64,000 nt of DNA, from the NCBI GenBank assembly GCA_951406725.2, contig OX597833.1:38998001-39062000 (forward strand), read 5' to 3'. This document shows positions 4,827 through 47,363 of this stretch, in pieces. The notes under the pieces were generated by a model. The model saw only the letters and a program-made list of their open reading frames with translations, searched no databases and was not told the DNA's origin. The position numbers and the translations under genes were made by a program. The DNA comes from Octopus vulgaris (lineage: Eukaryota). Within the stretch, counting starts at the first letter, position 1. Each line of letters opens with the position of its first letter.

Positions 4827-5242
4827 GTTGCACAATGCTAATACTTATTGAATGCACAATGTTGTGTCATCAATTAGAGTAAATTATTATCAAATAGACG
4901 GTTTTTATTATCCTGGACAAGAGGCTTTGTTCAGGTCTATTAATGTAATCCCACAGCAGAATGTTTATCAAAATAAAACAGAAGTCACACATAGTCCCTT
5001 ATTTCTGCTAGCCTTGAGCCACTGAATAACTGAGTAAACTGCAGATGCACACAAGACTTATCATAAAGAGAGACATTTCTTGATGCAGAAAGAGTAACCA
5101 TGATAAAATGTCATCATGTGACCATCAGGTTGTGTCACATGATATTCTCATGTTAAACACTTGCAATAATAAAGCAATTATACTACACATGTATTTTCAG
5201 GAGAGACATTTAATAATTTCAAAGAAGTACAAAATCCTAATA

Positions 5243-5780
5243 TCATTCAAAGTACGATCCTCTGACATCAATGTATTTGTAGCACTCAATCTACTTCCTG
5301 AAGGCTCCATGGAAAGTGTTGAGGACCCTTGTCACAAACTCTTTCATCTCCTTCAGCTTGGGAAACAACAAAGTCACTAGGAGCAAGGTCTTGACTGTAG
5401 GGAGGGTGAGGGACAATTTTCATGCCCGTCTCTCTCAAGTAGTTGGTAACCAGAATGGAAGATTGGACTTGAGCATTGTCCTTTTGCAATGAAATCTCCT
5501 TGATTTCCTTCAAAACCTCCACACAGTACTCTTTGTTGGCTGTCTGGCCAGAAGAAACCCAGTAGATGTAGATGATGCTCTTACTGTTAAGAAAGGGAAC
5601 AATCATAAGCTTTCTGGTAAACTTGCTTTGCCTGGTCTCTTGTGTCAGCCAAATACAGATGCTAGGTTTATACAAGTTAATCTATAAGCAGTCTGAAGCA
5701 TTTCTTACGTTTCTGTAGCATTGTTTCCCAGCTTAACACAAAAATTTATTGCATAGTGAGCTTTCAAATTGTCTTTACAT
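5243..5780 (-). mobile_element. Mariner (Tc1/mariner) transposase remnant, internally deleted
   Basis: Motifs YAINFCVKLGNNATET (N-terminal), GQTANKEYCVEVL, HPPYSQDLAPSDF and C-terminal IDVRGSYFE*; frameshifted. Confidence 0.9.
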
Positions 5781-6074
5781 CCTAACAGCATTCTGTAAAC
5801 TAGTCAGCTGTGAAAAGCAGTGTTTAGTAGGGTGTGTTCAAAGCATTTTTACAGCTGTCTCCTTTAATCTGCAATAACAAAATTTAGCAGGTATGCTTAT
5901 TAGATGTATAGTAATAATATACTAAAATTACAATAACGTAGGACAGTTATAACTGCTGCTCCTAAAAACAGTCTCAAAACTTCTGGAATGCACCTCATAC
6001 TTTTCAATTGTTTAAAAACCAGTACAGTTACTATAAAATATCCATGTTCTTTACCCATGAAATTAAAAAATAAA

Positions 6075-6215
6075 TTCTGTTGTGTCTGGGGAGAGTCATT
6101 TTCTTTTTGTGCCTTATAATGTAACACACTCACCGGTAAAATTTTCACTTATTTCTTATTTTTATTTTCCTAAAATTTTCGTTGCATCTTGCAACCTTTT
6201 TCAATAGTCTTGACT
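6075..6215 (+). mobile_element. Interspersed repeat arm (same family as 31915-32070 and inverted 32538-32610)
   Basis: ttctgttgtgtctggggagagtcattttctttttgtgccttataatgtaacacactcaccggtaaaatttt occurs three times in the window. Confidence 0.75.
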
Positions 6216-6546
6216 CTGTCCATTATTTACACTGCATTCCTTTTTGTTTGTTTGTGTGCATGTGTGTGAATCAGTGTGTGTGTGTGCCTATGCATGCATG
6301 TACGTATGTATGTGTGTATGTATGTATGCATGTGTATGTATGTATATATGTGTGTGTATGCATATGTATATATGTATGTATGTGTGCATCCAAAAACGAA
6401 ATTTAATAAATAAATGCATTTATAAAGTATTAGATAGTAATATCTTATTTCTATATTGTTGTAAATCAGTGGGGTTACACTTCCACTAAAACATGCATTA
6501 ATCACAGTTCATGTTTCATTTTGTTTTATTATCAATAAACTAATTA

Positions 6547-6690
6547 GGCATGGCTGTGTGATTAAGAAGTTTACTTTGAAACTATATAGATTTGGGTTCA
6601 GTCTCACTGTATGCCACCTTGGGCAAGTGTCTTTAACTATAACCTTAGCTGACCAATACCTTGGTAGATGGAAACTGTCTAAAAGCCTGG
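6547..6690 (+). mobile_element. 5' part of a CORE-like SINE, cut off by the hammerhead element
   Basis: ggcatggctgtgtgattaagaag...gggttcagtc...caccttgggcaagtgtctt...ttggtagatggaaactg. Confidence 0.8.
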
Positions 6691-6868
6691 TATGACATCA
6701 GTTTCAGCAATTTCCATTGTCTCATCAGTTAAGCCTGTTTGATTCTTCAGTTTTTTCTGGACTTGCTTCTCTATTAGTATATATGTTTTTGCCATCTAAA
6801 CTAATGGATGATTTAGTGATTCACTAATGTGTATACATAAATTTAATATAAACAGCAGGTTGCAATGT
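6691..6868 (-). mobile_element. Inverted partial copy of the hammerhead element
   Basis: Reverse complement aligns to about 6907-7085, including ggcttaaCTGATGAgacaatggaaattgctGAAActgatgtca. Confidence 0.9.
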
Positions 6869-7289
6869 CACATGTAGTGACAATTATAATTCTCCTTTTT
6901 GGTGAAACACTGCAACCTGCTGTTTATATCAATTTTATATATATACACATTAGCGAAATACTAAATCATCCATTAATCTGGCTGACAAAAGCATATATAC
7001 TAATAGAGAAGCAGCTCCAGAAAAAGCTGAAGAATCAAGTGGGCTTAACTGATGAGGCAATGGAAATTGCTGAAACTGATGTTAGTATTAAGAATTCTCA
7101 ATCTGCATTTTTCAGATAATTCAAGTCTCTGTTAGTGTATATGTATACATTTATGTGTATTGACTACAGCATTAGAGCATTTTAGCTCTTATTTCTAGCA
7201 ATGTAGGTGTTTCTTAAAACCCTAGTTACATTTAGAGACAATTACAATTTTCCTTTTTGGTGAAACATTGCAACCTGCTGTTTATACTA

Positions 7290-7293
<4 letters not shown>
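6867..7293 (+). mobile_element. Retrozyme-like / PLE pseudo-LTR element, 358-bp unit plus about 68-bp terminal direct repeat
   Basis: 6867-6935 is repeated at 7225-7293; central hammerhead; followed by (TA)n; homologous to 46951-47355. Confidence 0.8.
7027..7115 (+). ncRNA. Type I hammerhead ribozyme
   Basis: Stem I CUUAA(7044-48)/UUAAG(7088-92); CUGAUGA 7049-55; stem II GGCAAU-ggaa-AUUGCU; GAAA 7072-75; stem III ACUG-augu-UAGU; GUA cleavage triplet 7085-87; distal helix 7027-35/7107-15. Confidence 0.85.
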
Positions 7294-7330
<37 letters not shown>

Positions 7331-7849
7331 TTATAATTATATATATAGTTTGCTTGAAATATATATATATTACATGCTGAAGCAACCTGGTACCATCTCT
7401 GGCAGATGAGGTGTCCGGTACTGAGGAATGGCAGAAATAGCCTGAAACCAGTTTCCTTCTCATTCTCTCTTTCTCCCTCTCGCTCTCATTCTCTCGTTCT
7501 CTCATTTTCTCACTCTCTCATTCTCTCTCTCCCATTCTTACCTTCTCTCTCATTCTTTCTCTCCCTCTCCCCCTCTCTCTCTCCGTTCCTCCCTTCACAC
7601 TTACCCTTTCTGACCATTTCTTTATTCCTGTGATGTTTTCATCTTCTCTCCTTTGCACTTCACTTCACACCCCTCTGTCTGTCTATCTGCCTGTCTGTCT
7701 GTCTGTCTTTTTTTTCATTCTCTCTCGTTTTTCCTCTCACATTCTAATTTTTCTTTCTTTCCTGTAAAAAACAAAAAACTTGTGCAAACATACACTTGTA
7801 GAAGTCTATATGTATACTATGTATGTATATTTACTTACATACAAGTATG

Positions 7850-7955
7850 TACATGCATATGTGTGTGTGTGTGCATGCATGTGTATATGTAGGTATGGTT
7901 ATGCATATATATATGTGTGTGTGAGTCTATGTGTTGTATTCATGTATGTGTATGC

Positions 7956-7996
<41 letters not shown>

Positions 7997-8264
7997 TGAT
8001 ATACATATATATATATATGTATATAGGTACAAATGTGGATATTTTTATCCAGAGACACATATTTACGCACACACGTGCGAGAGAGAGAGAGAGAGGGGGG
8101 AGGGAGAAAGAGAGAGAGAGAGAAAATCAGACAGAAGCTTACGTACATCAATATACTCACAGGCATGCACATCAAACAGGTACATAGACACATAATAATA
8201 ATAATAGATACAAGTACACACACAGATCCACAGCCATTTACACTTGCATGTGTATATGCGTGCA

Positions 8265-8313
<49 letters not shown>

Positions 8314-8330
8314 GTATGTATATATATATG

Positions 8331-8395
<65 letters not shown>

Positions 8396-8517
8396 TATGT
8401 ATGTATATATATATGTATGTATATATATATGTATATATACATATATATATACATATACATATATATACATATATATATATATGTATGTATGTATGCATGT
8501 ATTTATATATATGTATG

Positions 8518-8559
<42 letters not shown>

Positions 8560-8696
8560 CATACATTCATACATGCATTCACACACATATATGTATACAC
8601 ACACATATATACACACATACATATATATATATGTGTATACACACACACACATATATATACATACATACATACATACACACACACATATATATATAT

Positions 8697-8737
<41 letters not shown>

Positions 8738-8826
8738 TACATACACACACACACGCACACATATACATACATGAGTGTGTGTGTGTGTGTATACATATAA
8801 ATATATACATATACATATATACACAT
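7850..8826. repeat. Compound (TA)n/(TATG)n/(CA)n/(GA)n microsatellite field
   Basis: Direct inspection; explains the YI/HT/VC-rich ORFs. Confidence 0.95.
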
Positions 8827-9980
8827 ATTCCAGTGCTGCTGAACTAGGTTATTTGAAGTTGTCAGCAGTGAAGGTGAGTGTTTGAAAATCATTATTTGAG
8901 ATTGCAAACTCTTTGAAGATCAGAATCAAATTCCACAGTTTATTGTGTGGAATCTAAGCTTTGGAGATATTTCTCATAGATTACAAAGAATTTATTCTGT
9001 TTCAATGCTACTTTTATTTGATATTTCACTGATGATAAAAATACCCACTGAATTCATAGATAGACGGACATATTGGATTATTATTTAAAGGGACTAAGAG
9101 GTATTTGGTGTGTAGGGTTATTTTTTTGAAAAAAAAAATCTATTTCTTTTTCTGTTTATGGGGCATAAAGGTAAATATGTGTGTGTGTGTATGTGCATGT
9201 GTGTGTACACAGATTCAGTATGTGTGTATGTTTGGTAATTCTGCCTATTTTGTGCTCTATAGATTTGGAGGAAGTGTTTATTTGGGTGTGTGCTTAGTTA
9301 TTCTTGTGTATATATGCATTTGGTTCCTCCTCCTCCTCCTCCTCCTCCTCCCCTCCTCCCCTCCTCCCCTCTCCCCCTCCCCCTCCTCTCCTCCCCTCCC
9401 CTCCCCCTCCCCCTCTTCCCCCTCTTCTTCTCCCCCCCTCTCGGTATGTGTGTGCGCACATATGTGCACATGTGCATGTGCATATGTGAATTTGTGTGTG
9501 CTCATGAGTGTGTATGTGTGTACCTGCATGCACACGTGTATGTTTGTGTGTGTGCATGTATGTGTTCATGCATGTGCATGTGTGTGTGTGCATGTGTGTG
9601 TGTGCATGCATGAGTGTTGTATAACTCTGTCAGCCATCATCCAACCCTCATCCAGTAGAGTCTTGACATGTATGTGTAACTATTGTTGTTGTATAACCCA
9701 TGTCATCACTAAACCTGCAGAGCCATGACACATCAGCTGTTGTTGTCGTCACGTGTCAAATGCGACCCCATAGAGCTGTGTGACATGTCAGCTATTGTTG
9801 TTGTATAGCCACATGTTAACCTTGATCCTACGTGTATATGATTTATCCATTGCTATTGTTTTTATCTTCATCTTGCAGATCTGTGATACATCAGAACCAT
9901 GCAATTGGAAAGCAAACTTCTTACCACACAGCCATGCCTGCATCTATATCATCTTAATTATTTCTGTAAGTATGGCAGTG

Positions 9981-40895: not shown

Positions 40896-41289
40896 AAAAG
40901 AATATATACATACATACATATACATATACATACATAGTGTGTGTGTGTGTGTGAGTGTATATTGTCAATTTATCATATATCAGAAAAAGAAGCACACTCT
41001 AAAGCATGGAGTCTGATGAGCTGTCCAACCAAGAACACCAAAATATAAGCAAGCAAGACAAATGTAAAGATACAAAATATACAGATTAATTACAGATTAT
41101 ATATATATAACCGGCAAAATTCACTACAGAGAAAGACTTTTGAAATATAACCCAAAATGTAATTGGTAGAACTATATACATGTTCAATCTCATGCAGACG
41201 CCTCGTGTATAGTTCTGCAAATTAAATTTTGCTATGATGATCACACTGACGAGTTGCGAACATCTACATAAGTGATTACGTAAGTGGTA

Positions 41290-41646
41290 CCAACGAAACT
41301 GGTTTGTGATTAATCTGTATACAGCATCACAGACAGCTTGGAATATCAAGGGAGTATTTCAGTCTAGTGCTATTACATAGCATTCAGTATCAAATTGATT
41401 TGCAAAATTTTGTTCTGGTAATTTTGACCTCACAAATGAGCAACGCGGTCGACTAGAAAAAAGGTAGATAATGACAAACTGAAAGCCACCGTCAAGTCAG
41501 ATTCATCTCAAAGTGCCCGTGAAATGGCAAAAGTGTATTAACAATACAGGTGTATACTTTGATGAATAAAACTATTCCTTGTATAAATAAAACATTAGCC
41601 AACATTTTTTTCCTTTTCTACAAATTTCATACTTGACGACCTAATA
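41290..41646 (+). mobile_element. Mariner remnant (N-terminal HTH plus right end)
   Basis: TASQTAWNIKGVF...FAKFCSGNFDLTNEQRGRLEKKVDNDKLKATVKSDSSQSAREMAK; ends gacgacctaa|ta. Confidence 0.75.
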
Positions 41647-46885: not shown

Positions 46886-46950
46886 CAAATCACTGTGGAA
46901 ACTAGGGAGTTTCATTATTTGATAATATATATATATATATATATATATAA

Positions 46951-47355
46951 TAGTTTTCCTTTTTGGAGATACATTGCTAAACAGCGCTGCCTAATTTAAT
47001 TACTTGTATACACATTAGTGATTCACTAAATCATCCATAGATTTCTATGGAATAAACATATATACAGCTGGTGATCTTGCCCGGAAACTGGTGAGTTGCG
47101 CTGAACCTGCTGATGAGTGCTTTGATCATAAAGCCGAAACCATTGAAGGTCTAGGGATATCACAGCTGCCACTTTAAGCTATTTACAGTTGCTGTAAGTG
47201 TGTATGTATACAATTATGTGCACTGAATGCAACATCAGAGCACTTTAGCTCTTATTTCTAGCATTGTAGGTGTTCTAACATCCTCTGTCATACTTAATGA
47301 CTATTATAGTTTTCCTTTTGGTGATACATTGCTAAACAGCAGCCTAATTTAATTA
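46951..47355 (+). mobile_element. Retrozyme-like / PLE pseudo-LTR element, about 356-bp unit plus about 50-bp terminal direct repeat
   Basis: tagttttccttttgg.gatacattgctaaacagc...gcctaatttaatta at 46951 and 47307; preceded by (TA)n; shares conserved blocks with 6867-7293. Confidence 0.8.
47100..47166 (+). ncRNA. Type I hammerhead ribozyme
   Basis: Stem I CCUG(47106-09)/UAGG(47152-55); CUGAUGA 47110-16; stem II G(u)GCUUU-gaucau-AAAGCC; GAAA 47136-39; stem III ACC-auugaa-GGU; GUC triplet 47149-51; distal GCUG/CAGC. Confidence 0.9.
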
Positions 47356-47363
47356 TATACATC

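Follow-up and report, generated by a model that had tools for sequence, protein, structure and literature searches.

The window analysed here is a stretch of 64,000 nucleotides from Octopus vulgaris (contig OX597833.1, positions 38,998,001 to 39,062,000). Between 6693 and 7303 it holds an insertion in which two arms of a 358-nt repeat unit are joined head-to-head beside a (TA)n run. The features in and around the insertion, and a related element further along the window, are the following:

6540..6694, + strand: flanking high-copy repeat, which we take to be SINE-like; its 3' end abuts the inverted arm and it lies outside the element
6693..6866, - strand: inverted partial arm, unit positions ~42-218, 84% identical to the family majority
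6867..7303, + strand: main arm, i.e. the 358-bp unit (6867-7224) plus 79 bp of a second lap, stopping at the long 3' end of the family (unit position ~79)
6991..7144, + strand: long enclosing stem made of a 19-bp and a 9-bp helix, with the predicted ribozyme at its tip (z -4.25 for 6990-7145)
7044..7092, + strand: predicted type I hammerhead; stem I 7044-48/7088-92, CUGAUGA 7049-55, stem II 7056-60/7067-71, GAAA 7072-75, stem III 7076-78/7083-85
7247..7303, + strand: PLE-type "tail", the segment from the short 3' end of the family (unit ~22) to the long one (unit ~70-84)
7292..7328, no strand: (TA)n run at the 3' junction, a typical target
46947..47362, + strand: sister element, a ~340-nt unit plus overlap within (TA)n, ending at unit position ~76, 69% identical to the family majority

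The direct repeat period of 358 bp reported in the earlier note was recovered when the spacing was recomputed. The terminal redundancy is likewise present, but it is about 79 bp long (6867-6945 vs 7225-7303, 89% identity) and not about 68 bp as first given; the second lap runs over into the (TA)n run. The tandem extent at the locus is thus 1.2 units. What had been overlooked is the inverted arm of about 175 bp (6693-6866) that adjoins the 5' end of the main arm head-to-head. This arm carries a hammerhead core that is broken off just before the cleavage triplet, and it ends at unit position 218, i.e. not at one of the terminal sites of the family. The absence of an ORF is confirmed: the longest stop-to-stop frame overlapping the unit has 90 codons. 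The main arm differs from the family majority at 44 of 437 positions, and 17 of these differences are at the 30 CpG positions. No target-site duplication was seen at the insertions. We note that one other arm, at L023:1750-1831, ends at unit 218 as the one at window position 6693 does, a point that lies within the stem III palindrome, 3 bases short of the cleavage site; with two of 287 arms there is no enrichment of such ends.

All parts of the type I hammerhead core are at the places where they had been read, namely CTGATGA at 7049, GAAA at 7072 and GTA at 7085-87, with a stem I of 5 bp. The two outer helices are also borne out, i.e. the 9-bp helix at 7027-35/7107-15 (one G·U pair) and the 19-bp helix at 6991-7009/7126-44 (three G·U pairs). 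Cleavage is predicted after A7087, and the closing pair of stem II in this copy is G·U. A strict type I descriptor gave a single match in the window, at 7049, and none in 100 block-shuffled windows. A match of a loose descriptor at 41238-41312 (+) has an implausible 42-nt stem II region and was lost under a tighter descriptor, and is likely due to chance. The covariance models that had been recommended as a check did not recover the ribozyme: Rfam gave no hammerhead match in 5000-9500 at E<=1, and none at the gathering score in four better-preserved loci of the family. The miRNA-like Rfam matches correspond to microsatellites and to the fold-back and were rejected.

The rod-like fold proposed earlier did not emerge for the unit as a whole. 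The hammerhead tips one long stem, and the other half of the unit is a cluster of short hairpins. Folded as a circular monomer, the window copy reaches a z-score of only -1.75, whereas the family majority is at -10.6. For 6990-7145 the fold of minimum energy lacks the hammerhead, and forcing the hammerhead costs 4.0 kcal/mol. When both arms are folded together (6690-7300), the result is a single long hairpin of -284.5 kcal/mol that covers the hammerhead; a read-through transcript of the locus would in all likelihood bury the ribozyme in about 200 bp of hairpin. The window copy cannot release a monomer because only one sense hammerhead is present. This copy is likely dead.

The search for related copies covered the 2.8-Gb genome (227 contigs). 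Searches with the unit returned 1,668 and 1,858 first-look candidates, and 294 exact matches to a 27-mer scale to about 2,000 segments, sister families counted in. The copies are dispersed over many chromosomes. A set of 213 loci was analysed, of which 187 were unique after duplicates were dropped; these provided 287 unique arms, arms cut by a sequence edge being left out. Identity to the majority unit has a median of 85% and a maximum of 93%. No young copy appeared among the 40 candidates scored per search, a sample that rare young or long copies could escape, and the best other match to a near-majority query of 91 nt was 92%. Divergence is 27% at CpG sites and 11.5% at other sites. Using the value given for Octopus vulgaris in PMC13282606, where a JC distance of 0.09 equals 25 My, we infer that the family was active roughly 15-30 My ago, if this clock applies.

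The same decay is visible in the ribozyme. The G10.1-C11.1 pair is kept as G-C in 82 of 134 family hammerheads; C11.1 lies inside a CpG, and therefore the pair has become G·U in 25/134 and the catalytic G12 is lost in 23/134. The copies decay neutrally. The suspicion that the window copy is weakened holds, and its G·U pair at stem II is a case of CpG decay. The divergence of the core is below that of the rest of the unit (5.4% vs 11.7%), a gap that we do not read as selection on copies, since hammerhead patterns served to select many of the loci and the figure for the rest also contains the spread between subfamilies. Stems I and II also contain compensatory changes, from A-U to U-A (11/130 and 11/150) and from U-A to C-G (9/131). 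These changes trace to some 17 arms that belong to diverged sister subfamilies and so count as few events. This covariation shows that the fold was maintained while the source elements evolved. In the majority, the 12 nt of stem III form a perfect palindrome, a feature that has been linked to dimeric hammerheads (PMC4209133). A separate observation concerns unit positions 181-220 of the majority, where the most stable predicted fold lets the CUGAUG core pair with the palindrome of stem III. This fold lies 5.3 kcal/mol below that of the hammerhead; according to this folding model, such pairing could leave a monomer circle uncut.

The sister element at 46947-47362 has a different type I hammerhead with its core at 47110, an extra nucleotide after A9 and a GUC site. 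Its similarity to the unit is unevenly distributed, with 95% identity over unit positions 321-340 and 35% over 161-180. It shares the non-ribozyme half, including the hairpins just past the long 3' end. Further sister subfamilies were observed at L100, L149, L073, L089, L122, L148 and other loci below 80% identity. These subfamilies share the 3' half and differ in stems I-III with the pairing kept. The conservation of the non-ribozyme half points to its being a recognition region.

The ends of the copies are strongly polarised. The 3' ends fall in unit positions 1-90 in 229 of the 287 unique arms as against 83 expected from coverage, a count that is inflated by two sampling anchors placed just upstream of the 3' end sites. 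In the upstream-anchored sets, 34 of 50 3' ends are in 1-83, 10 in 335-357 and 6 in 100-284. There are two modes about 55 nt apart, at unit 22 (25 arms) and unit 79 (44 arms). Both clusters fall on the two longest AT-only runs of the unit and the exact end positions are therefore blurred; microhomology could contribute to priming. Of the 237 terminal 3' ends, 148 have a microsatellite no more than 30 nt away, as compared with a background of 12.5%. An internal microsatellite expansion was considered as the origin of the ends at position 79 and rejected, as the unit continues beyond it in just 1 of 139 long-end arms.

The 5' ends are spread out, with no spike at the cleavage site. The absence of a spike at unit 210-224 led us to discard the cleaved linear monomer as the main template. 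Head-to-head arms occur in 67 of the 187 loci and tail-to-tail arms in one. Where both ends of an arm pair are terminal (37 pairs), a long end goes with a short one in 26, as against 18 expected (p=0.007); at least one internal end is found in 30 of the 67 pairs, the window pair among these.

The lengths of the arms bear on how the copies were made. The earlier note saw in the monomer-plus-overlap form the trace of a single trip round a circular RNA. In its full form this reading holds that the circle was reverse-transcribed once round from arbitrary starts, and that the family is possibly still active. The majority unit would indeed fold stably as a circle (the z-score of -10.6 given above), and the cleavage site is crossed by 148 of the 287 arms, 5' ends showing no accumulation there. 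However, just 9 of the 287 arms have the window form; 3'-anchored arms have a median length of 172 nt, and 13 of 87 are longer than one unit. Nor are the starts circularly permuted: the variation is confined to the 5' ends, the 3' ends having two fixed sites. As no copy exceeds 93% identity to the majority, and 92% is the best other match to the 91-nt query, continued activity is not favoured either. We regard this explanation as very improbable. The overlap in the window copy results rather from a fixed 3' end combined with a chance 5' truncation.

Neither a 621-nt tandem query nor a spaced two-copy pattern found any array beyond about 2 units. The longest arms measure 751 nt and 902 nt, the latter being a later local duplication. 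L034:1260-2053 is a 2.5-unit array that arose by later local duplication of DNA, as its first two laps share 25 of 32 derived changes. This locus is what one would expect if the whole family were a DNA-level repeat, a satellite or fold-back element spread by local duplication with the hammerhead as a passenger. The dispersal over many chromosomes, the polarity of the copies (fixed 3' and ragged 5' ends) and the covariation of stems I and II across subfamilies all speak against this, as do overlapping laps at the other loci, which differ by about 15% with few shared changes; we consider the idea scarcely credible.

The insertion pattern has a close parallel in the coding PLEs of the same genome. 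At least 148 GIY-YIG matches were scored out of 6,136 candidates, and the many 781-codon open frames among them suggest a young family. One locus, L214 (G000:C16:20834500-20841500), has an ORF of 765 aa with RT and GIY-YIG, an upstream ORF of 346 aa and 456-bp pLTRs that are 99% identical, and is apparently an intact PLE as judged from its sequence. A simple regex found no hammerhead in it. Its pLTR is matched by 20 of the 30 GIY-YIG loci taken, and these copies stop at one of two sites separated by 40 nt (15 loci at one, 5 at the other), i.e. with the same two-site footprint as the hammerhead family.

A partner of the family was sought with proteins from GIY-YIG frames only, leaving aside locus L178, which is not a PLE. 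Downstream of the 30 GIY-YIG loci nothing clearly homologous to the unit was seen. In one coding PLE family (L166, L168, L170, L171, L173, L174, L179, L185) the final ~45 nt bear a weak resemblance to unit 13-58, but the stretch is AT-rich and the per-locus p values of 0.005-0.11 are not independent, so we treat it as borderline, a hint that the two may have an end signal in common. Coding sequence of PLEs is present no further than 1.5 kb away at 2 of 187 and at 1 of 22 loci, and in none of them is it fused to the unit; the PLE fragments at L115, L147 and L254 are separate insertions. No PLE protein match was found in the window or in 10 kb on either side.

These results bear on the proposal that the copies are the broken-off pLTR ends of an extinct autonomous PLE with tandem 358-bp hammerhead units in its pLTR, and that there is no independent retrozyme. 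The footprint of the insertions is PLE-like, most PLE insertions are 5'-truncated and Xenopus retrozymes are described as resembling pLTRs (10.64898/2026.07.22.740005), and PLEs with tandem hammerheads have been reported (PMC7229834). Against this, 74 of the 287 arms are more than a unit long, and beyond it they run on into a further copy of the unit, with lengths of up to 751 nt. Moreover, no shared body was found upstream of the family arms in 127 flanks, no ORF is fused to the unit in 187 + 22 loci, and the hammerhead, with its long extension of stem I, is of the canonical kind and not of the minimal PLE type. The proposal is therefore unlikely in our view, if less so than the two discussed before. 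The related case named at the outset, that all copies are termini attached to a coding PLE, does not apply to this family, as no fusion is seen at any of the 187 + 22 loci.

We are thus fairly confident that a 358-nt non-coding hammerhead repeat, i.e. a non-LTR retrozyme, inserted at the window locus long ago and is now likely inactive there, and that it was likely mobilised in trans by a PLE reverse transcriptase-endonuclease. The class suggested by the earlier note, a non-coding type I hammerhead element resembling non-LTR retrozymes, stands. The canonical type I core is in a non-coding unit whose length is within 150-450 bp, the element has no coding capacity and is unfused to an autonomous element, and it contains no ORF with RT and GIY-YIG between pLTRs. 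The PLE-type traits are the two fixed 3' sites, the variable 5' truncation, the head-to-head inverted copy and the AT-rich or microsatellite targets. Against this reading it can be said that no partner was found in the 30 GIY-YIG loci, that the inverted arm of the window copy ends internally, and that the searches gave no long tandem array, the form by which published retrozymes are defined.

The mechanism that we envisage is as follows. Multi-unit source loci would be transcribed, and the predicted hammerheads, perhaps paired via their palindromic stem III, would excise monomers. A PLE protein would bind the non-ribozyme half of the unit RNA and nick AT-rich DNA on both strands. Reverse transcription would begin inside the unit at two sites that lie about 160 and 215 nt 3' of the cleavage site, pass the cleavage junction and drop off at random, which would leave two 5'-joined arms. 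A template that yields arms longer than one unit and running across the cleavage junction must have been a ligated circle or else a multimer left uncleaved. The scarcity of long arrays and of arms spanning two hammerheads (5/287) makes us lean slightly to the circle, which is a plausible template and has a narrow edge over the multimer. Contigs from runs presumed to be RNA contained short diverged fragments of the family, none spanning the unit, and such contigs cannot reveal circles. A 381-nt contig with a go-back joint in one of these presumed RNA runs was not recovered again as such and was dropped. A more detailed version, in which a 358-nt circle is read by the PLE RT from two fixed internal sites and the sisters share the non-ribozyme half (unit ~300-110) as a swappable PLE-recognition module with the hammerhead half exchanged, is offered tentatively, and we consider it somewhat less likely than not.

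Several of these steps have precedents. PLE insertions are described as having 5' truncation, partial tandems, an inverted 5' copy, a one-sided tail and a bias to microsatellites (Craig et al. 2021, 10.1101/2021.04.23.441226). For a purified PLE protein, nicking of both strands of AT-rich DNA has been reported, with reverse transcription starting at two sites within the RNA, which delimit the tail (Frangieh et al. 2024, PMC11167929). According to the same report the start requires RNA 3' of the start sites and not ribozyme cleavage, and a non-homologous start is recorded for PAc, unlike the microhomology priming that could contribute in the octopus family. In this family the sequence 3' of the predicted start site is missing from the end of the copies, so it would have to come from a circle or a multimer. 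The family resembles endonuclease-bearing PLEs in all the insertion traits listed, including AT-rich or microsatellite targets, and in having two predicted internal RT start sites downstream of a hammerhead; it differs in that it has no ORF, that its tail is about 55 nt and not 30-40, and that the repeated unit is the whole element. With the dimeric type I hammerhead system it shares the type I topology, the conserved G10.1-C11.1 pair and a palindromic helix III that suits dimeric folding, and a circular template has been proposed for the more-than-unit copies of that system. Unlike that system, the family has a stem II of 5 bp and a real stem III, and it lacks the extra nucleotide after A9, which is however present in the sister element at 46947.

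Non-LTR retrozymes are known from mussel (350-390 bp), coral and axolotl (330/350 bp), and PLEs were proposed as their mobilisers (Cervera and de la Pena 2020, PMC7229834). As far as they are characterised in that article, they share with the octopus family a non-coding unit of about 350 bp, low GC, a canonical type I hammerhead, a highly self-paired predicted circle and coexisting PLEs. The octopus family differs from them in that the searches gave no long arrays, that it consists mostly of sub-unit copies and that it is aged, and its ribozyme is a predicted one. The words "inverted", "octopus" and "cephalopod" are absent from the main text of the article. Li, Clavereau and Pollet (bioRxiv 10.64898/2026.07.22.740005) regard animal retrozymes as non-autonomous PLE derivatives on the basis of co-occurrence and pLTR homology, mostly in vertebrates, and our conclusion on a PLE origin is the same. 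Dispersed monomers are described there, and cleavage failed in 8 of the 9 dimer elements tested. Insertion ends are not mapped in the preprint, and its term "active" needs two consecutive hammerhead units, which the window locus does not have.

Our literature search found no description of an octopus hammerhead or retrozyme family, and no paper that maps retrozyme insertion ends by their two-site and arm anatomy; Repbase, Dfam and the octopus repeat library (PMC13282606) lay outside this search and may list the family. The retrozyme class as such is already published, and the octopus family is likely a non-autonomous, PLE-mobilised non-LTR retrozyme. By itself the locus is a minor, old and probably dead repeat copy. 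The family as a whole adds insertion-level evidence for the published but unproven idea that Penelope enzymes move animal retrozymes, and it names a likely cis-acting region and two predicted start sites.

Finally, a frame of 131 codons was observed at 5286-5681 (-) of the window, which is presumably a fragment of a mariner-type transposase.
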